Shown here: piece by piece, positions 7,302 to 17,145 of the stretch
How positions within the stretch are numbered: the first letter of the stretch is position 1
How the letters are laid out: each line of letters begins with the position of its first letter
From: a virus
Strand: one strand, 5' to 3'
IMG/VR virus record: IMGVR_UViG_3300025000_000061
Coordinates: 32,001 to 96,000 of that record
Length of the DNA stretch: 64,000 bases
Program-made: the position numbers and the translations under genes
The notes under the pieces: generated by a model
Told to the model about the DNA's origin: nothing
Databases searched by the model: none
The model's input: the letters and a program-made list of their open reading frames with translations, nothing else

Positions 7302-7724
7302 TTGAAAATATTACATAATGCTCAGTGTTATAAGCAAGATAGGGAGTTGGATTGGAGAGGGTGGTGTCCGAAGAGGGGTGAGATTTATTTGTGTCAATTG
7401 GGTAATGAAGGTCTTATATATTCAGAGATTAAGGGGTATCGTCCCGTATTGGTTGTGTCAAATAACATAGCAAACAAACATAGTCCAGTAGTTTCTATTA
7501 TACCATTAACTTCTAGTCAAATAAAAAATAATAATATGCCTGTTCATGTTAAAGTAGGAGTAGAAGAAGGGTTACGAACTTCGAGTTTAATTTGTTGTGA
7601 GCAGACTAAAACCGTATCTAAAAATCGTATGTTCATAAATGGTAGTTTAACTAGAATTTGTAAATTGAGTAGTAAATCGATGTGTAAAGTGGACGAGGCA
7701 ATACGAATACAATTTGGATTGTAA
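7302..7724 (+). CDS. mazF: MazF/PemK-family endoribonuclease, no adjacent antitoxin
   Basis: PKRGEIYLCQL...SEIKGYRPVLVVSNNIANKHSPVVSIIPLTS...HV...CEQTKTVSKNR; catalytic Arg and Thr positions retained. Confidence 0.92.
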   Translation: MKILHNAQCYKQDRELDWRGWCPKRGEIYLCQLGNEGLIYSEIKGYRPVLVVSNNIANKHSPVVSIIPLTSSQIKNNNMPVHVKVGVEEGLRTSSLICCEQTKTVSKNRMFINGSLTRICKLSSKSMCKVDEAIRIQFGL

Positions 7725-7873
7725 ATAAATTGGGAATAGATTATAAATATAAATTATAATATATATTATCATATATTATAAAAGGGTGTGATGTCTTTGA
7801 TTGTGTAAAAATAAATTAAAAAGTTATTGTGTTTAAATTGTATCTATTAAAAAATAATATAAAAGGAGGATAT

Positions 7874-9412
7874 ATGTTAGTAAAAAATCAAAAAGTTAAA
7901 ATGAATTGGAGTGGAAGTAATAGAAAACATTATGAATTAAAAGGATATCCTTTTACTAATTATAATGATGAATTTGAAGTTAAAATAGAGGATTTAGCAC
8001 CAAAAAGTCAAAAATATGTTTTGATTAGATGTGATTATTGTGGGATACCTTTTTTGAGAAGGTATGTAAATCATAATACAAGAAAAGAGAAATATGGTAT
8101 AAATGATAAAGATTGTTGTGATGATTGTAGAGCATATAAAAGAGAAGAAACATGTTTAGATAAATATGGTGTTAAAAACGCTGCTCAGACAGAAGAAATA
8201 CAAAATAAAATAAAAAGAACAATTAAAGAAAAATATGGAGTAGAATATATTTCTCAATCAGAAGAAATTAAAAACAAAAAGAAACAAACTTGTTTAGATA
8301 AATATGGAGTAGAATATACCTTACAAGTGCCAGAAATTAGAGAAATAATTACAGAAACTAATATAAATAAATATAGATGTGAAAATCCATTTCAAGCAGA
8401 AGAAATTAAAGAAAAAATAAGACAAGTCAATATGGATAAATATGGAGTTGAATATGCTTCCCAATCTTTAGAAGTGAAAGAAAAAACCAAACAAACTAAT
8501 TTAATAAAATATGGGAAAGAATACTACTTACAAACAGATGAATACAAAGAAAAGATTAAACAAAATAACCTAGACAAATACGGAGTAGAATATTATTCAC
8601 AAACAGAAGAATATAAAAACAAATATAAGCAAACCTGTCAAAATAAATATGGTGTTGATAATGTTTCACAAGTTCCAGAAATTGCAGAAAAAATTTCACA
8701 ATCACGTACAAAAGAATTTAAAGATTTGACAAATATAAAATTTAACCATTTAACAGTAATTTCTTTAGTACCTGATAAAACAAATAAGCACCATGATAGG
8801 TATTGGCTATGCGAATGTGATTGTGAAAATAAAACTAGAAAGGAAATTTCAGAAAATCATTTAGTTAGAGGAAATATTAAAAGTTGTGGGTGTATACGAA
8901 AAGAATCATTAATTGAAAGATGGGAAGGTAAAACAAAAAAGGATATATATCCTTATTACAAAGAAATATATTGTACATATGATAGTATGAGAAAAAGATG
9001 TTATAATGAAAAACATGATAATTATAAAAGATATGGTGGTAGAGGAATAATTATTTGTGATGAATGGTTGAATGATTTTATGAATTTTTATAATTGGGCA
9101 ATAAAAAACGATTATAAAGAAGGATTAACTATTGAAAGAATTGATTATGATGGCAATTATGAACCTGATAACTGTAAATGGGCAACATGGGAAGAACAAA
9201 GTTATAATAAATCAAATACGTTATACATAGAAGTAGACAATGAAATGAAAACAGTTAAACAATGGTCTGATGAAACAGGGATACCTCAACATATAATATA
9301 TCAAAGATATGCCAGATATAAAAGAAAAGATAAAAAAGAATTAGAGTTATTAACTAAAGAAAAATTCTTTAAACCAGTTAGACAACTCAAAAGAAAGGGT
9401 GATGTTGTCTGA
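7874..9412 (+). CDS. Free-standing HNH-type homing endonuclease with 23-aa KYGV repeats
   Basis: ATG 7874 after AGGAGG; about 8 repeats xTCLDKYGVEYxSQ; C-terminal WLCECDC..SCGC..MRKRCYN..YGGRGI..LTIERID..GNYEPDNCKWAT. Confidence 0.8.
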   Translation: MLVKNQKVKMNWSGSNRKHYELKGYPFTNYNDEFEVKIEDLAPKSQKYVLIRCDYCGIPFLRRYVNHNTRKEKYGINDKDCCDDCRAYKREETCLDKYGVKNAAQTEEIQNKIKRTIKEKYGVEYISQSEEIKNKKKQTCLDKYGVEYTLQVPEIREIITETNINKYRCENPFQAEEIKEKIRQVNMDKYGVEYASQSLEVKEKTKQTNLIKYGKEYYLQTDEYKEKIKQNNLDKYGVEYYSQTEEYKNKYKQTCQNKYGVDNVSQVPEIAEKISQSRTKEFKDLTNIKFNHLTVISLVPDKTNKHHDRYWLCECDCENKTRKEISENHLVRGNIKSCGCIRKESLIERWEGKTKKDIYPYYKEIYCTYDSMRKRCYNEKHDNYKRYGGRGIIICDEWLNDFMNFYNWAIKNDYKEGLTIERIDYDGNYEPDNCKWATWEEQSYNKSNTLYIEVDNEMKTVKQWSDETGIPQHIIYQRYARYKRKDKKELELLTKEKFFKPVRQLKRKGDVV

Positions 9413-10008
9413 TTGAATTTATTATAGGAGCAATTTTATATGCAAAATATAAAAAGAAATATAAATTAAAATACATATTTAAATACCCATACATATTTGC
9501 AATAATACCACCTTTATTATGTGCCTTACTATACATATTTATAGAAATATCAGTTTGGAATCAATGGTATTGGTTTTTACCATATCAACATATAATAAAA
9601 ACTACAACTTTGTTAAGTTATATACCTTTACTTTATATATATAATCTTTATGAAAATGATAATCAAAAATACATAAATAATAATATAATGAATGTAGTTA
9701 CTTCACCTATGTTTAAAGCAGGATTCTGCTTATGGTTAGGTTCGACATTAAATAAAATAGTTATAAATGCTAACAATGGTATGCCAGTTTTCCCTAGTAA
9801 TACATACTGGACTGGTTACGCCAAACCAGATTTATTTAATGATGGTATACATATATTAGGTAATGCTTATACAAAATTAATTCCTTTGTCAGACTGGATT
9901 GATATTTTTTACTCGGTGATTTCCCCAGGAGATATTTTAATTCGTATGTATGTTTTTTTAATTATATATTATGCTATAAAATATTCTAATAAATTATTAA
10001 TAAAATAA
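9409..10008 (+). CDS. DUF5317-family membrane protein (true start probably CTG 9409)
   Basis: Frame open from CTG 9409 after GGGTGA SD, giving (M)IEFIIGAILYAK..; NKIVINANNGMPV and TKLIPLSDWI..VISPGDILI motifs. Confidence 0.8.
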   Translation: MIEFIIGAILYAKYKKKYKLKYIFKYPYIFAIIPPLLCALLYIFIEISVWNQWYWFLPYQHIIKTTTLLSYIPLLYIYNLYENDNQKYINNNIMNVVTSPMFKAGFCLWLGSTLNKIVINANNGMPVFPSNTYWTGYAKPDLFNDGIHILGNAYTKLIPLSDWIDIFYSVISPGDILIRMYVFLIIYYAIKYSNKLLIK

Positions 10009-10019
10009 TAAAATAAATG

Positions 10020-10048
10020 TTGACACTTAAACAACTCTATGGTAATAT
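10020..10048 (+). promoter_or_regulatory. Sigma-A promoter for the sensor-like gene and agrD
   Basis: TTGACA-17 bp-TAATAT with extended TG. Confidence 0.75.
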
Positions 10049-10080
10049 ATAAATAGAAAATTACTAAGGGAGTTGGTTAT

Positions 10081-10881
10081 GTGGAACAAAATATTATAAA
10101 TGCGATATTGAATTTTTTCACAATTAGTTTGTTCGAGGAGTTAGGTATAGTTTTACTAATTTTAATATTTTTAAAAAGATTTGATTTACTTGATAAATAT
10201 ATGTGGAGATGGAATATAAAATGGATAATTTTGCCTACAATTTTAACGTCATTCTCCATAAATATATTTATATACATAATACCAAATTTTATATTAAAAT
10301 TTTTTGTTTCTATTATTGTTTTATACTTTTCTATAAATTATATCTTAATTAAAACAGACCCATTAGATGAAAAAATAAAATGGTATAAAATATTAATCAG
10401 TATAATATTAAGCATAGTTATGATAACAAGTGCAGAAATAATATATTTACCAATAATGCTTCAATATGTTAATCAACCAATAGAAATATTGAATAATAAT
10501 ATGTTATTAAAATTTATAGTAAGTTTGCCAGCAAAAACATTTCAAGTGTTATTGATTTATTTCATGTATAAAAAACATAATCAAAGTGAAAAATATGTTT
10601 CTAATATTTTAAAAGATAGAATATTATCTTTAGTTACAATTAGTTTTACTGGTTTAATATTGTTTGCTTTAACATGTATAGTAAAAATTGTAATTAGTTC
10701 AGAAATGATTGGTAAATATTCAATACAAACTCAAATGATGATTAGTGTATTAATAACAATTGTACCAACAATACTAATATTTCTTTATATCATACCAATT
10801 AATTACCTATTATCACGATTATTCAGAATACAACAGAGTTATCAACAAATGTATGATGATGTTGATGATACTGATGTATAG
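10081..10881 (+). CDS. Polytopic membrane protein resembling an AgrC/VirS sensor domain, lacking a kinase domain
   Basis: About 7 hydrophobic helices; directly upstream of agrD; ends in a short acidic tail with no H-box or GHKL domain. Confidence 0.6.
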   Translation: MEQNIINAILNFFTISLFEELGIVLLILIFLKRFDLLDKYMWRWNIKWIILPTILTSFSINIFIYIIPNFILKFFVSIIVLYFSINYILIKTDPLDEKIKWYKILISIILSIVMITSAEIIYLPIMLQYVNQPIEILNNNMLLKFIVSLPAKTFQVLLIYFMYKKHNQSEKYVSNILKDRILSLVTISFTGLILFALTCIVKIVISSEMIGKYSIQTQMMISVLITIVPTILIFLYIIPINYLLSRLFRIQQSYQQMYDDVDDTDV

Positions 10882-10913: not shown

Positions 10914-11039
10914 ATGAAAAAATATACTCTTTTAGTCGTAGCTGGTTTTATTGCTTTAGTTGCTACTGCACTTACTAATTCCGTAGCATCTTTCATGGGA
11001 TTGAATCAACCTAAGAGTCCTTCTATGTTAGTAAAGTAA
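10914..11039 (+). CDS. agrD: AgrD-like cyclic lactone autoinducer peptide precursor, 41 aa (not in ORF track)
   Basis: Strong SD AAAGGAGGTG; MKKYTLLVVAGFIALVATALTNSVA-SFMGL-NQPKSPSMLVK, i.e. amphipathic leader, 5-residue ring and QPKxP tail; agrB is 1.5 kb away. Confidence 0.88.
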   Translation: MKKYTLLVVAGFIALVATALTNSVASFMGLNQPKSPSMLVK

Positions 11040-11055
11040 TATGACTACATAGAAA

Positions 11056-11093
11056 ATTCTAAAGTAGAGTGTTTACTTCCTCTACTTTAGAAT
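11056..11093 (+). terminator. Hairpin after agrD
   Basis: ATTCTAAAGTAGAG / CTCTACTTTAGAAT perfect 14-bp stem. Confidence 0.7.
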
Positions 11094-11179: not shown

Positions 11180-12055
11180 ATGATGTTATTTAATAAAAAA
11201 GAAATTCTTAAAAAAGATAATCTTGTGGATGATAAATTTAAAAAAGAGATGGCATTTTTAGTATTTAAAGCAAAAGGTAGACGAAATATTGAACAATTCG
11301 TAAAAGACATGAAAATGTTTGATCCTACACCAATCGTTAATTTAATAAATAAAAATTATAATGAATTACCTGATAGAAAATTATTAAGGAAAATAGCCGA
11401 TAATAGTATGGGAATGGTTAATTTTAGGATATTATATGATCTCTGTGGTTACTCCGAGAGAGATCCTGAAGAAGATCGTAGTTGGATAAAATGGGTTCCA
11501 AGATGGGCAGAAGTTTATATGTGTGATCTAGGCATAGGAGAGGATTGTATTCAAGGAGGGAAAAGAAATGTATTAATAATTCAAAATAATAAAGGCAACC
11601 AACACTCACCGAATGTATCTATATTGCCAATATCCAGTAAATGTAAATTTAACCATATGCATATACTATTAGAAAAAGAATTGGGTTTTGAAAGGGATAG
11701 TTACGCATTGTCAGAAATGCCATTAACTGTAAGTAAGAGGAGGTTCTTTTATAATACAGTACCTTATAAAATTACAACACTTTCAGATTTTAAAATGAAA
11801 GAAATACAGGTATGTCTTGAGAAACAATTTGGATTTTTACCACTTTATTTTGACGTAGAACATGCATTTGAACTAGTCAGACATATAAAAAATCTAGAAC
11901 AAAATATAAAAATCAAAAAATCACATAATTTAGTAGATATTATGGAAGATAAATTAAATGACCTAAAAGAATACTGTTCAAAATACAAAAAGAATTATCA
12001 ACATTACCTACAAGAATACGATAGAATCAATAACTATGGTATTCAAGCAATATAG
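11180..12055 (+). CDS. XRE-like HTH - MazF/PemK fusion with C-terminal extension
   Basis: N-term KAKGRRNIEQF..LPDRKLLRKIAD..LYDLCGY; centre PRWAEVYMCDL..QGGKRNVLIIQNNKGNQHSP..GFERDSYAL. Confidence 0.8.
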   Translation: MMLFNKKEILKKDNLVDDKFKKEMAFLVFKAKGRRNIEQFVKDMKMFDPTPIVNLINKNYNELPDRKLLRKIADNSMGMVNFRILYDLCGYSERDPEEDRSWIKWVPRWAEVYMCDLGIGEDCIQGGKRNVLIIQNNKGNQHSPNVSILPISSKCKFNHMHILLEKELGFERDSYALSEMPLTVSKRRFFYNTVPYKITTLSDFKMKEIQVCLEKQFGFLPLYFDVEHAFELVRHIKNLEQNIKIKKSHNLVDIMEDKLNDLKEYCSKYKKNYQHYLQEYDRINNYGIQAI

Positions 12056-12126: not shown

Positions 12127-12600
12127 ATGATTAACGAACACAAATTAAAGTATCTATGCAACAAATATGGTATTAATTATCAAGTATTTCATGCAACAGA
12201 TACCATATTAATAGATGCAAAATTAGATATATGGGAGGTGAAATATTATGAAGAAATACAAAAAAAATTAAATTTATTATACAATAAACAAAAAGAAATT
12301 CAATTGCAATTATTATCTCCTGTATTAGATGAACCAATTAAGAAAAAATTATTATATGAATATGAAAAAATAAACAAAAAAATAAAAGAAACAAAACCAT
12401 ATTATTTACTTCATAAAAATAAATCTGATAATAAATTTAGCAATCAGCACACACAAGGATGGAAGAAAAATTTATATCAAGTAATAACTTTTATATTAGC
12501 ACATAAAAGAGTTTTATATGGCATCCAATTAGGAAAGCCATATATACATAAGCACAATATTAAAATAAATAAGAAGGGAAAAGTATGTTTAAATACATAA
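12127..12600 (+). CDS. Hypothetical protein overlapping the agrB start
   Basis: ORF with AAGGAG SD. Confidence 0.7.
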   Translation: MINEHKLKYLCNKYGINYQVFHATDTILIDAKLDIWEVKYYEEIQKKLNLLYNKQKEIQLQLLSPVLDEPIKKKLLYEYEKINKKIKETKPYYLLHKNKSDNKFSNQHTQGWKKNLYQVITFILAHKRVLYGIQLGKPYIHKHNIKINKKGKVCLNT

Positions 12601-13271
12601 GATACCTATTAACATTCCGATATATCAAACTAATATCCTATATATCTGCTAAATATCTTCATAATAAAATACCTGTATTCCCACTAATAGATTCAAAAGT
12701 TTTATTAAAATTTTTACCAAAAAATATGTTAGATTTATTTGAAAATTTACATCAACAATCTAAATTAAAACCATATAAACTTAAATATGTTTATTACTAC
12801 GGTTGTCAAATCATCATAGGAGGCATTAACAAATTCCTACTCTTAATCACACTAGGCATCCTACTCAACATCCTCCCATATCTCATACTAACAACAATAT
12901 CATTCGTATCATTGCGAATTTGGTCTGGAGGGTTACATTTTGACTCTTACTCTAAGTGTGCCTACATTTCACTCTTATCATTTACAATCATGGCACTATT
13001 AGCAAAATACATCTACATATCAACCATACCTACTATATTAATATTCTTAATTGTCTTAATTTTAATTCTATTATATGCACCAGTAGAGCATCCCAACAGA
13101 CCAATAAAAAATAACGAAAAAGTTAAATTTAAATTAATTTCAATTTTCTCATTGTTAATATTACTATTAGTTATTTTATGCGTAAATAATATTATTATCT
13201 GTAATTCTATAGTGTTTGGAGTGCTATTAGCAGGTATAATTATGTTGCCTATTATAAACAAACTGAAATAG
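12585..13271 (+). CDS. agrB: Accessory gene regulator B (AIP-processing membrane peptidase)
   Basis: LRIWSGGLHFDSYSKC (catalytic His/Cys pair) and YAPVEHPNRPI motifs; multiple TM segments. Confidence 0.93.
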   Translation: MFKYIRYLLTFRYIKLISYISAKYLHNKIPVFPLIDSKVLLKFLPKNMLDLFENLHQQSKLKPYKLKYVYYYGCQIIIGGINKFLLLITLGILLNILPYLILTTISFVSLRIWSGGLHFDSYSKCAYISLLSFTIMALLAKYIYISTIPTILIFLIVLILILLYAPVEHPNRPIKNNEKVKFKLISIFSLLILLLVILCVNNIIICNSIVFGVLLAGIIMLPIINKLK

Positions 13272-13809: not shown

Positions 13810-15183
13810 ATGCTTAGTATAAAAAATGCTATGTTAATAGGAGAGTTAAAACCACTAATATTAAAGTATGGCAACAATTCAAAAATCTATAACATTATAC
13901 AAGAGGAATTTATTAAAAAAGGGTTATCTGGTAGCAATGCAAAAAACTTACTAACAGGTAAAATTGCTTTAGAAACATTAGATATTACCAATCAAAAAGA
14001 ATTATTCTTATTATTTTCTTTTACAGATGCTATGAAGAAAGCACTAAGTACATTTGATGAAATGTCCAAGGACACTTTTGGCATGGAAGAGGAATATATT
14101 AAATTAAAATTAGAATATTATTTTACACCCATAGAGATTGAAGAATTTACAGAATTCGTTATAGAGAAAGAAGAAGTAAGAAAATATCCGTATAGATTAA
14201 GAAATATGTTAAAAGTAGGAGAAAATCATTATATAGGGATTATAACTTCTAAAGAATTAGCCGAAATAGATTCTACTAATGATATAGTATATGACTTTGC
14301 AACACAAAGAGATCCTAAAATTGATATATTTGGAATGAGACGTATTAATGTTGACACAAGAAAAATTGATGCAATTGAAAAAAGTTTACTTGCTGGTGAA
14401 TATTTTTCAGATGAAATCAAGTTGAATGTTAAGAATGATGGAGAAGATCATATCGAATTCGATTCAAAGGACGGAATTTATGGTGATCTTATTATTCATT
14501 CAGGAACAATAACTTGTTTTGATGGCTATCACAGAAAAACTGCCAATTCTAAAGCGCAAAATAAAAATAATGAATTGCAATTTAACTGGAAGTTAGGTGT
14601 CACCAATTATCCAGAACCTAAAGCAAGAAAATTTATGACACAGATTAATAAACAAAAACCTATTAAACGTGAATACGTTAAAAATATTGATGAAACAAAA
14701 AATGAAAATACAATTGTCAATAATATTATTAATAATTCTAATTCTGAATTTGCCGATAAAATTAAAGAATCTGATGCAGAATTAAAATTTAGTGGTTTAA
14801 CTAAAAAATCTATATTATCTCTAGCAATAGAAGAACAATATGAAGAATTTTTAAACACTAAAATTTATAATATTGAAATCTCTAATTGGATAGTAGACTT
14901 TACAAATTATTTAATGGGACTATATCCTAATGAATTTTTATTTAATGTAGACAAAACTAAAAAAGTAAGTTATATTAATAATAGAAATATGTTCATAGGT
15001 TATATTGCACTTTCAAGAAAGTTATATAAGCAAGATGATTGGAAGAGTAAGACCGTTAAAATAATGAACAGTATTGATTTTAGCATTGAAAATAGCATAT
15101 GGAAGAATATTCGTATTGATGATAATATTTTAAATAAAACATCAAGAAAAGAATTATATAATCTATTTATAAAGGAGGTGTAA
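13810..15183 (+). CDS. ParB/DndB-like (DGxHR) protein, resembling SPbeta YopQ/SroE
   Basis: TQRDP and FDGYHR motifs; 457 aa; immediately upstream of an integrase-fold gene. Confidence 0.7.
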   Translation: MLSIKNAMLIGELKPLILKYGNNSKIYNIIQEEFIKKGLSGSNAKNLLTGKIALETLDITNQKELFLLFSFTDAMKKALSTFDEMSKDTFGMEEEYIKLKLEYYFTPIEIEEFTEFVIEKEEVRKYPYRLRNMLKVGENHYIGIITSKELAEIDSTNDIVYDFATQRDPKIDIFGMRRINVDTRKIDAIEKSLLAGEYFSDEIKLNVKNDGEDHIEFDSKDGIYGDLIIHSGTITCFDGYHRKTANSKAQNKNNELQFNWKLGVTNYPEPKARKFMTQINKQKPIKREYVKNIDETKNENTIVNNIINNSNSEFADKIKESDAELKFSGLTKKSILSLAIEEQYEEFLNTKIYNIEISNWIVDFTNYLMGLYPNEFLFNVDKTKKVSYINNRNMFIGYIALSRKLYKQDDWKSKTVKIMNSIDFSIENSIWKNIRIDDNILNKTSRKELYNLFIKEV

Positions 15184-15186
15184 ATA

Positions 15187-16251
15187 ATGGTAAAGCATAA
15201 AAATGGTAAGATTAACTTAGCAGAGAGAGTATTTAAACATGATAGAGATGTTAAAGAAGAATTTTTAAAAGATATTAAACCATCAACTGCAAAAACTATA
15301 AGAAGCATACTTTTTAAAGTAGATGATTATGAAGATCGAATCGGTAAAAGTATATATGATTTTACCTTTGAAGAGCGTGATGATTTCTTTATTTCTCAGT
15401 TTTGTAATAAAAGTAAGGGCGTTATTAATACAACAAGATCATATTTAGTAAAGTATATTAACCATTGTATTGATAACAACCTTGTTAGACATATGGAGAA
15501 TAGGTTTGATTTAATTTCTAAAGATGATATTGATAAATATATTAATGATACTGCAATGCAAATGAAATATCTATCTAGAGAAGAAATTAAAGAAGCACAG
15601 GATAAATTAGTTAATAATTGTGATAAGTTAATTTTGCAATTAATACCTTTGTCTGTCAGAGGGCGTACAGAATTGAATAATACTAATGAAGAATTAATTA
15701 ATTTGAGAGTAAAAGATGCTGAAGAATCTTATGAAACAGGTATTTTGCATGTCTGGAATAATGACGGTGATAGAAGACCTGTGAAAATTGATGAAGAAAC
15801 AATAGAATTATTGAAAAAGACAATAAATGATGATAGTTATATTATTAATAACGGAAGCATTTATGATAAAAAAGGGAGAATACTTGGCAGGGGTATCGGA
15901 GAAAAATGTTTTCCTTTAAATGATACTGGTTATGTATTTAGAACTGCTGGTAAGAATAAAAAAGGAAAAGTTAAAACTAATTTTTTTGGTTCTAGGATGA
16001 GAATAATGAAAACCTGGACGATGAATCCATTTATCACCGTAACGAATTTGTATTATTCTGGAATTATCGATTATGCTATGCAATTAAGAAAAGAAAAAGG
16101 TACAGAATTAGATAATCATGATTATATTAAAATAATTGATAAGTTTTCTTATGGTAAACCACAAATACTATCAAACAAAGAATTAGATTGGAGTGTACCA
16201 ATATCAAAAGTAAAATCTATGGTGGAAGATTATATTAATAGAAAATTATAA
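15187..16251 (+). CDS. Tyrosine-recombinase-fold protein with degenerate active site, putative master repressor (YopR/SroF/MrpR-like)
   Basis: SAM-like N-terminus; YLSREEI; VRGR..EELINLRVKD; HxxR box replaced by TNLYYSG. Confidence 0.7.
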   Translation: MVKHKNGKINLAERVFKHDRDVKEEFLKDIKPSTAKTIRSILFKVDDYEDRIGKSIYDFTFEERDDFFISQFCNKSKGVINTTRSYLVKYINHCIDNNLVRHMENRFDLISKDDIDKYINDTAMQMKYLSREEIKEAQDKLVNNCDKLILQLIPLSVRGRTELNNTNEELINLRVKDAEESYETGILHVWNNDGDRRPVKIDEETIELLKKTINDDSYIINNGSIYDKKGRILGRGIGEKCFPLNDTGYVFRTAGKNKKGKVKTNFFGSRMRIMKTWTMNPFITVTNLYYSGIIDYAMQLRKEKGTELDNHDYIKIIDKFSYGKPQILSNKELDWSVPISKVKSMVEDYINRKL

Positions 16252-16263
16252 AGAGGTGATAAA

Positions 16264-17145
16264 ATGGCAAAAGACGTTAATTTATCTGATTACACTGATA
16301 TAGAAGTTTATAATATGCTTAGATTTGGTATTATAGGTAGATTTCCTAATAATTTTTGGGGTGGTTTAGATACCTTTAAAACTGCAAAAGATTTAACCAA
16401 GTATATGTTTGAAAATATTCTCAAATGGGATATAGAAGATATTAAAAATAATACAACAGCAGATATTTTTTATGACTATAGACTTGGTGGTATGCTGAAA
16501 CAATTATTTAATGGTAATGTTTTAGATGCATTATTAAATGCATATCCAGAATTAGAAGAAGAATGGGTAGAATCTAAAAGAAGGACTAAAAACGAAAAAG
16601 AAGAAGATAAAAGAGAAAAAGAAGAAAAAGAAACAAGAGAAAAATATACAGATGAACAATTGATAGAAAATTTACAGCAAAAATTTAAACAATTAAATAG
16701 AAATCCTTATATAAGAGAAATGTCAGATCCAGATGGAAATGTATATTTAACAAGATTTGGTAGTTGGACTAAGGCATTAATTGCAGCAGAATTGCTTGAT
16801 GATATTTGTGCAGATGTAGATGATTCCGAAGAAGCAATTTATGAAGCACAAATTAAGATTAAAGAATTTGCATATCAATTAGGAAGATACCCTACAGAGG
16901 AAGAAGTTAATGATTTATTTTCACAAGGAGAAATAAAAGTTTATTTTAAATCTTTAGTTGGACTTTATAATTATTTAAATGAAGGGTATACAAAAGAAGA
17001 ATTGATAAATATTTTGGTTGATAAAAGAAATAAATTAGATAGAAATCCAATAAACAAAGATATAAAATTCCCAAGACCAATTATTTTTATTGATAAATTT
17101 GAAAGTTGGGAAAATGCTTTAAAAGAAGCGGGATTAGATAAATAA
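16264..17145 (+). CDS. DUF4046-like domain plus homing-endonuclease-associated repeats (putative DNA-binding protein)
   Basis: EVYNML..RFPNNFW..KYMFENILKW; repeats FGSWTKALIAA and FESWENALKEAGL. Confidence 0.65.
   Translation: MAKDVNLSDYTDIEVYNMLRFGIIGRFPNNFWGGLDTFKTAKDLTKYMFENILKWDIEDIKNNTTADIFYDYRLGGMLKQLFNGNVLDALLNAYPELEEEWVESKRRTKNEKEEDKREKEEKETREKYTDEQLIENLQQKFKQLNRNPYIREMSDPDGNVYLTRFGSWTKALIAAELLDDICADVDDSEEAIYEAQIKIKEFAYQLGRYPTEEEVNDLFSQGEIKVYFKSLVGLYNYLNEGYTKEELINILVDKRNKLDRNPINKDIKFPRPIIFIDKFESWENALKEAGLDK

Follow-up and report, generated by a model that had tools for sequence, protein, structure and literature searches.

How could a phage perceive an agr-type peptide through a receptor that has no kinase? 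This question is raised by a locus in IMG/VR virus record IMGVR_UViG_3300025000_000061, of which bases 32001–96000 (64,000 nucleotides, hereafter the window) were analysed. The record is 151,782 bp long and ~82% complete. The window has a GC content of ~24%, and the sequencing runs containing the stretch were groundwater metagenomes (DNA) only. The protein in question, referred to below as X, is a 266-amino acid (aa) multi-pass membrane protein encoded between the genes of a DUF5317 protein and an AgrD-like peptide precursor. The profile comparisons presented here indicate that X is very probably a kinase-less homolog of the AgrC-type sensor module. The fuller proposal, namely that X is a stand-alone, kinase-less member of this clostridial module and acts as a receptor signalling without a phosphorelay, stands in our judgement at about an even chance.

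A search of 400 Clostridia genomes with the profile of the X family matched a 452-aa kinase over its N-terminal 245 residues (E 1.5e-5). By Pfam, this kinase carries SPOB_a and HATPase_c/HATPase_c_5 (GHKL) domains, and its gene is located right after a Response_reg+LytTR gene. The hhalign comparison of the X-family profile with the kinase gave 92% (E 6.7e-7) over X residues 10–168. Searching with the N-terminal domain of the kinase led to a large family of stand-alone, five-helix proteins of 150–180 aa, designated Xs. Phage X aligned with Xs at 96.8% (E 2.9e-10, 135 columns), bacterial X with Xs at 96.6%, and Xs with the sensor domains of nine AgrC-type kinases encoded beside agrB at 91.8% (E 7.3e-7). 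In the controls, made against other multi-pass membrane proteins, the values were 0.1–0.2% for X or Xs with AgrB and 0.8% for X with MASE9. Because of these transitive profile matches and the low controls, helices 1–5 of X are considered, on sequence grounds, to be homologs of the module through which clostridial AgrC-type kinases receive their input. The AgrC-like membrane domain named in a preliminary description of this DNA, which was made from the letters alone, was thus recovered by profile methods.

The Xs module was found in three forms. In the fused form, it is part of the 452-aa LytTR-partnered kinase. In the split form, detected in at least five genomes, an Xs protein of ~160 aa with five transmembrane (TM) helices is encoded in operons of the order CheW-Xs-kinase-AgrB-AgrD, where the short kinase (282–311 aa) comprises two TM helices, SPOB_a and GHKL domains. 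These operons were observed at loci L103, L104, L107, L108, L115 and, in part, L111; the presence of CheW within an agr operon is unusual. The free form occurs in DUF5317-Xs-AgrB-AgrD operons, some of which have GGDEF or HD-GYP genes upstream. Three 149-aa Xs paralogs stand in tandem behind DUF5317 at one locus (L106:933-3192), and there are two Xs genes in tandem at another (L118).

The start codon of X is GTG, located 7 nt past the good ribosome-binding site AAGGGAG, and the protein ends in ...QQMYDDVDDTDV. Hydropathy and the positive-inside rule gave seven hydrophobic helices and a predicted N-out/C-in topology, the latter because of K/R-rich loops at residues 31–48, 93–103 and 167–181. The protein terminates 20 residues past TM7 with an acidic cytoplasmic tail. 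Its AlphaFold2 (AF2) model was all-helical with a predicted local distance difference test value (pLDDT) of 76. Neither Pfam (E up to 1) nor NCBIfam gave a match to X, and no kinase, H-box, ATPase or other family was recognized in it. Hence, the preliminary reading of a 266-aa multi-TM protein without H-box or ATPase (open reading frame, ORF, at 10081–10881) was confirmed, as was the position of DUF5317 directly upstream (PF17248, E 3.9e-15). A feature search of the ESM Atlas returned only unnamed clusters, the nearest of them mostly viral.

The conserved core of X consists of TM1 (..S-L-F-E-E..) and cytoplasmic loop 1 (LKRFDLLD), and conservation is highest on the cytoplasmic face of the protein. 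The motifs that define the X/Xs families are (I/V)-P-E-(E/A/S) in TM1, an E..Y.P-type motif in TM4 and S/T-(L/I)-P in TM5; in X they are represented by E19/E20, E119-x2-Y122-x-P124 and P150. Residue 18 (residues 18–20 are encoded at 10132–10140) is Phe in the window protein and its closest relatives and a near-invariant Pro elsewhere in the family. No invariant His was found in the X family. A CPBP/Abi (MroQ-like, PF02517) protease was considered by the motifs EExxxR, FxxxH and HxxxN/D and dropped, as the His motifs are missing and the Arg lies 13 residues past the Glu pair rather than 3.

X resembles AgrC in several ways: it is a sensor module that crosses the membrane several times, its gene lies with those of AgrB and AgrD in an agr locus, its predicted topology is N-out/C-in, and its helices 1–5 are homologous according to the transitive matches. 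However, it lacks the DHp helix with the phospho-accepting His (the H-box; SPOB_a/HisKA-like) and the GHKL ATPase, has no LytTR partner in the 152-kb phage record and ends in the 20-aa acidic tail instead.

The lack of a kinase is a rule in this family. An exhaustive phmmer search with X among 1.84 billion representative proteins yielded 74 matches of 56–320 aa, the full-length ones being 253–320 aa. In word-indexed searches with the single X sequence and with a 57-sequence profile, all matches were no longer than 361 aa and were unnamed or annotated as "hypothetical"; the profile gave 40 of them. A GHKL ATPase was found in none of the 74 and 40 homologs; the close homologs are consistently kinase-less, a point for which the preliminary description had asked for a check. 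A profile search for fused X among proteins of 561–2000 aa returned none, which is weak evidence. In phages, the cassette DUF5317-X-agrD-long MazF-AgrB-small ORF-DndB-MrpR is kept down to 28–33% X identity. Since both the kinase-less form and the whole cassette persist to this depth, X does not appear to be a recent truncation of a full kinase; this outcome, which the preliminary description had named as the one that could overturn its reading, was not observed. That description had also noted the absence of AgrA and asked for a histidine kinase or LytTR regulator elsewhere in the genome: LytTR (PF04397), receiver (PF00072), HATPase_c and HATPase_c_5 domains were all absent from the whole 151,782-bp record (~82% complete). 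Among the GenBank phages (50,697 records), there was no DNA match to the cassette and no tblastn match to X or AgrB, and a genome-contig scan with the phage X profile gave no match. Agr signalling and the AgrC sensor are already known as a kind of system. The conserved family of sensors that stand alone, have a tail of their own and keep their place beside agrD in phages and bacteria is without a Pfam or NCBIfam entry and without mention in the literature searched.

All genes around X lie on the + strand. The features of the locus, in window coordinates, are as follows.

7302–7724, + strand: MazF
7829–9412, + strand: 527-aa DUF7487 protein
9409–10008, + strand: DUF5317 membrane protein, 199 aa (PF17248, E 3.9e-15), with a CTG start
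10020–10048, + strand: promoter-like site TTGACA-17-TAATAT with TG extension (consensus match only)
10081–10881, + strand: X, 266 aa, seven TM helices, very probably homologous to the clostridial AgrC sensor module but without a kinase
10914–11039, + strand: AgrD-like precursor, 41 aa, with ribosome-binding site AGGAGGTG
11059–11090, + strand: perfect 11-bp hairpin with a 10-nt loop after agrD, followed by an A-run
11180–12055, + strand: fusion of an XRE-type helix-turn-helix (HTH) and MazF (PemK/MazF-domain protein), 291 aa
12127–12600, + strand: 157-aa ORF
12585–13271, + strand: AgrB peptidase/cyclase (PF04647, E 7.4e-37)
13810–15183, + strand: 457-aa ORF; its phage homologs carry DndB
15187–16251, + strand: MrpR_N_CB protein (YopR-type repressor-like)

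The gene upstream of DUF5317 encodes DUF7487 repeats and a C-terminal HNH-like region. In the relative L006, a 566-aa DUF4379 protein stands in place of the 527-aa gene, so this slot looks like a variable insert. An HNH_repeat/DUF4046 gene is the third gene downstream of the cassette (13810–17145 region). The promoter-like site at 10020–10048 falls in the 72-bp gap between DUF5317 and X. The preliminary description had X co-transcribed with agrD from its own sigma-A promoter. The site itself is a good one, but promoter-like sites in the window were not enriched over shuffles (71 vs 62.5 ± 7.4 in DNA of 24% GC), and co-transcription of X with agrD is only presumed. The hairpin at 11059–11090 was not called in the terminator scan; as an A-run stands behind it in place of a T-run, it does not form a canonical intrinsic terminator, whichever strand is considered.

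The AgrD-like ORF matched TIGR04223 with an E-value of 0.036 and 14.3 bits, which is under the cut-off of 19. The phage AgrD has Ser at the ring position and reads ...VA-S-F-M-G-L followed by NQPKSPSMLVK. The pattern S-x4-(N/H)QPK.PS is kept in the AgrD of all eight phage cassettes (8/8) and parallels C-x4-(H/Y)QP..PK of the bacterial loci, whose AgrD-like ORFs read ..KPAC.W..HQPRVPK and variants, some with Ser. In AgrB, the GG.H...C catalytic motif is kept, and H118 and C125 are invariant in the alignment.

X is followed immediately by an AgrD-like ORF at all eight phage loci (8 of 8) and at 19 of the 23 bacterial loci. The bacterial X proteins form a subfamily of 310–320 aa with a longer helical cytoplasmic tail, found in Ruminiclostridium and related Bacillota; the usual layout there is agrB-X-agrD with a convergent XRE-type HTH gene. 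Seventeen agrB loci were compared in five Ruminiclostridium-type genomes: eleven had a GHKL kinase within 2 kb, five had X adjacent, none had both, and one had neither. A hypergeometric count of kinase against X at these 17 loci gave p ~0.001, a figure that is indicative only, as the genomes are related. At agr loci, X replaces rather than accompanies AgrC. Ruminiclostridium cellobioparum has, in addition, an orphan X-agrD pair with no local agrB beside an Opp-type peptide importer (L019/L018:6001-7103), as well as agrB followed by a broken X with one TAA (G001:C22:78581-79173).

The module was also traced to an operon of the Clostridium perfringens type. DNA encoding CLWFTHQPEEPK, which we take to be the core of C. 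perfringens AgrD, was matched in 3 of the 401 genomes of the one family searched. In one of them (L132:3427-5272, genome G490), it belongs to a DUF5317-Xs-AgrB-AgrD operon with an AgrD ORF of 44 aa (135 bp). The Xs protein of this operon (~153 aa) gave 99.9% to the Xs profile, and its DUF5317 protein (188 aa; Pfam 1.3e-30) is 35% identical to that of the phage (E 4e-24). In C. perfringens, agrB and agrD are co-transcribed with two "hypothetical proteins," CPE1563 and CPE1562, and the agrD ORF is 135 bp (Vidal et al., 2009; PMC2706048). Because the AgrD sequence, the 135-bp ORF and the operon position agree, the two hypothetical genes very likely encode DUF5317 and Xs, an assignment made by operon position and AgrD identity. 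According to reviews, there is no two-component system near C. perfringens agrBD, and sensing is assigned to the distant VirS/VirR (PMC4963840). We found no paper naming the CPE1563 and CPE1562 genes as sensor-like.

The set of DUF5317, sensor module, AgrB and AgrD represents an operon layout of long standing in cells and not a phage invention. The C. perfringens-type operon of genome G490 has the same four components as the phage cassette; however, its module is the short five-TM Xs without helices 6–7 and tail, whereas in the phage agrD follows X and agrB has moved behind the MazF gene. Hence, the phage lineage carries the old four-part agr unit in a rearranged form with the XRE-HTH-MazF gene inserted.

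The phage DUF5317 protein exceeded the PF17248 cut-off (56.6 bits against 25). It contains the motifs ANGG.MP and S.GD, and residues G111, N115, N122, M125, P126, S172, G174 and D175 are invariant in the alignment. Its reading frame is open from 9403. The start was placed at CTG 9409, since the phage homologs begin with MIEFIIG (ATG start) where the window reads LIEFIIG; the start overlaps the TGA of the upstream 527-aa gene (9409–9412). DUF5317 was present in 37 of 200 sampled Clostridia genomes. The cellular gene usually lies downstream of a gene for a MASE9-HD_5 (HD-GYP) membrane protein and overlaps its stop (L052, L055, L057–L063), to which it appears to be translationally coupled. Five X-bearing genomes had no DUF5317, and a role as general partner of the bacterial full-length X was rejected. 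Judging from its coupling to MASE9-HD_5 genes and its absence from these five genomes, DUF5317 has the appearance of an accessory subunit that serves membrane signalling proteins. No second domain was recognizable in long DUF5317 fusions of 558–627 aa, and the term "DUF5317" was not found in the literature searched. At loci L126 and L118, DUF5317-Xs-AgrB-AgrD is immediately preceded by GGDEF or HD-GYP genes, which hints at a link of agr with cyclic di-GMP (c-di-GMP) signalling; neither HD-GYP nor GGDEF genes occur in the phage record. Co-folding of X with DUF5317 gave a score of 0.00, which counts neither for nor against a contact.

The neighbour of X that attracts most attention as a partner is the 291-aa protein. 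In its AF2 model, a five-helix HTH fold at the N-terminus precedes a MazF/PemK domain, and the C-terminus forms a helical hairpin. Pfam gave no HTH match for this protein; the label "HTH-MazF" of the preliminary description holds at the level of the predicted fold, though sequence profiles do not show the HTH. In bacteria, a convergent XRE gene flanks ten agrB-X-agrD loci, and locus L050 has an XRE-X-agrD operon facing agrB. Together with the phage fusion, this makes three independent layouts in which X-agrD pairs go with XRE-type HTH proteins. The L050 operon (L050:2828-4380) encodes an XRE protein of 210 aa with a double HTH, a divergent X of 244 aa and a 47-aa AgrD that has a Ser ring and a leader that is not hydrophobic; it adjoins phage-like antirepressor and excisionase-like ORFs.

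The mechanism that we propose for the phage locus is as follows. AgrB would cut and cyclize the AgrD precursor to a five-residue Ser-lactone peptide (S-F-M-G-L ring), which X may bind in the membrane. The signal would then be relayed by protein contact rather than phosphotransfer, via cytoplasmic loop 1 and the C-terminal tail; the preliminary description had named the acidic tail or DUF5317 as what could contact HTH-MazF. The best candidate for the contacted partner is the neighbouring XRE-HTH-MazF protein, which could be held at, or released from, the membrane in the style of SdpI and SdpR. In Bacillus subtilis, the membrane protein SdpI senses a peptide and sequesters the repressor SdpR, which is of the ArsR type and not the XRE type. 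The likeness concerns the mode of action only (peptide, multi-pass membrane protein, captured DNA-binding protein), and no sequence or structural relation is claimed.

Several results weigh against X being a receptor of the AgrC kind with such a partner. The direct hhalign comparison of the X profile with the nine AgrC-type sensor domains, taken from the Ruminiclostridium-type genomes, gave only 14%, and the link between X and AgrC, as read from the sequences, runs through the bridging Xs family. Helices 6–7 and the tail match nothing, including the TM pair of the short kinases (0.1% for helices 6–7). No solved or Atlas structure similar to the X model was found. The extracellular loops of X are very short, and its best-conserved residues are the Glu pair within the membrane, features that would fit a transporter or an enzyme as well. 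In addition, the phage HTH domain compared with the bacterial XRE partners gave 2%, that is, no specific kinship.

Three other roles of X were considered. The split arrangement of sensor and kinase opens a third route beside phosphorelay-free signalling and interference with the host, in which X, as one part of a split AgrC, would serve as a plug-in sensor that senses the peptide and docks in the membrane onto a host short kinase (two TM helices, DHp and ATPase) or another host sensor, with a phosphorelay via host AgrA/VirR-type regulators. The operons that encode Xs (160 aa) and a kinase (282 aa) as separate proteins between CheW and AgrB-AgrD, and the fused 452-aa form too, speak for this route. 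So does the presence of Xs in C. perfringens-type operons that have no local kinase, where published work assigns sensing to distant VirS/VirR (PMC4963840). However, full-length X has two extra helices and a conserved cytoplasmic tail that the split Xs does not have, X-type loci recurrently come with an HTH partner and not a kinase, and no candidate host kinase can be named; we regard this route as unlikely. Even less probable, in our opinion, is that X is not a receptor but a factor for maturation or export of the autoinducing peptide (AIP), i.e., a leader-peptide protease, or a flippase or exporter of the AgrB product. In staphylococci, MroQ and SpsB perform the AIP maturation/export step after AgrB. 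Such a role would agree with the location of X immediately beside the precursor gene even where agrB lies elsewhere, and with the nearly invariant intramembrane acidic motif (P/F-E-E in TM1, E119 in TM4). Nevertheless, the homologous module is the sole membrane input domain in bona fide histidine kinases, no residue capable of catalysis (His, Ser, Cys) save Glu19 is conserved across the X family, and no CPBP/Abi or other peptidase family was detected by Pfam at E up to 1.

The preliminary description had also offered a decoy or dominant-negative role. Here, X would absorb the host AIP or poison host AgrC-type sensors via mixed oligomers, and host quorum sensing would be silenced during infection. 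X is indeed a sensor homolog without an output domain, and interference of phages with the quorum sensing of their hosts is known. However, kinase-less X is stable on chromosomes in bacterial agrB-X-agrD loci, and the phage has a matching AgrD of its own besides an intact AgrB and so makes a signal, not merely absorbs one; the conserved cytoplasmic loop and tail also argue for a downstream contact. This role appears very improbable.

A phage-borne set of agr-type signalling genes has a precedent in the Clostridioides difficile phage phiCDHM1, which reportedly carries agrB, agrD and a full agrC kinase. The phage described here differs in having a kinase-less sensor, accompanied by DUF5317 and HTH-MazF. 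The position of its agr cassette is that at which arbitrium sits in SPbeta-like phages. As in the arbitrium system (AimR/AimP/AimX), the peptide cassette is located just upstream of DndB-like and MrpR/YopR-type repressor genes (13810–16251), and published arbitrium work contains a link to MazF-type RNases. In contrast to arbitrium, with its linear peptide and cytoplasmic TPR receptor, the phage here would use an AgrB-made cyclic peptide and membrane sensing.

On this basis, a broader model can be put forward, which is tentative and, taken as a whole, rather doubtful. X and XRE-HTH-MazF may constitute a kinase-free peptide-sensing pathway in which the receptor gates a DNA-binding RNase, and this pathway might replace arbitrium in the lysis-lysogeny control of clostridial SPbeta-like phages. 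By extension, DUF5317 and Xs might be the missing local sensing parts of C. perfringens-type agr operons without AgrCA, possibly feeding c-di-GMP (HD-GYP) signalling.

In many clostridia, C. perfringens among them, agrBD occurs without agrCA, and the manner and site of peptide sensing there have been argued over for more than 15 years. A stand-alone AgrC-sensor homolog and DUF5317, as the very likely products of the C. perfringens operon genes, make knockout and binding tests concrete. The full-length kinase-less form of the phage, located beside its own peptide gene, XRE-HTH-MazF and an SPbeta-type repressor region, provides a compact model of peptide signalling without phosphorylation, and the cassette is possibly a second, chemically different phage communication system.

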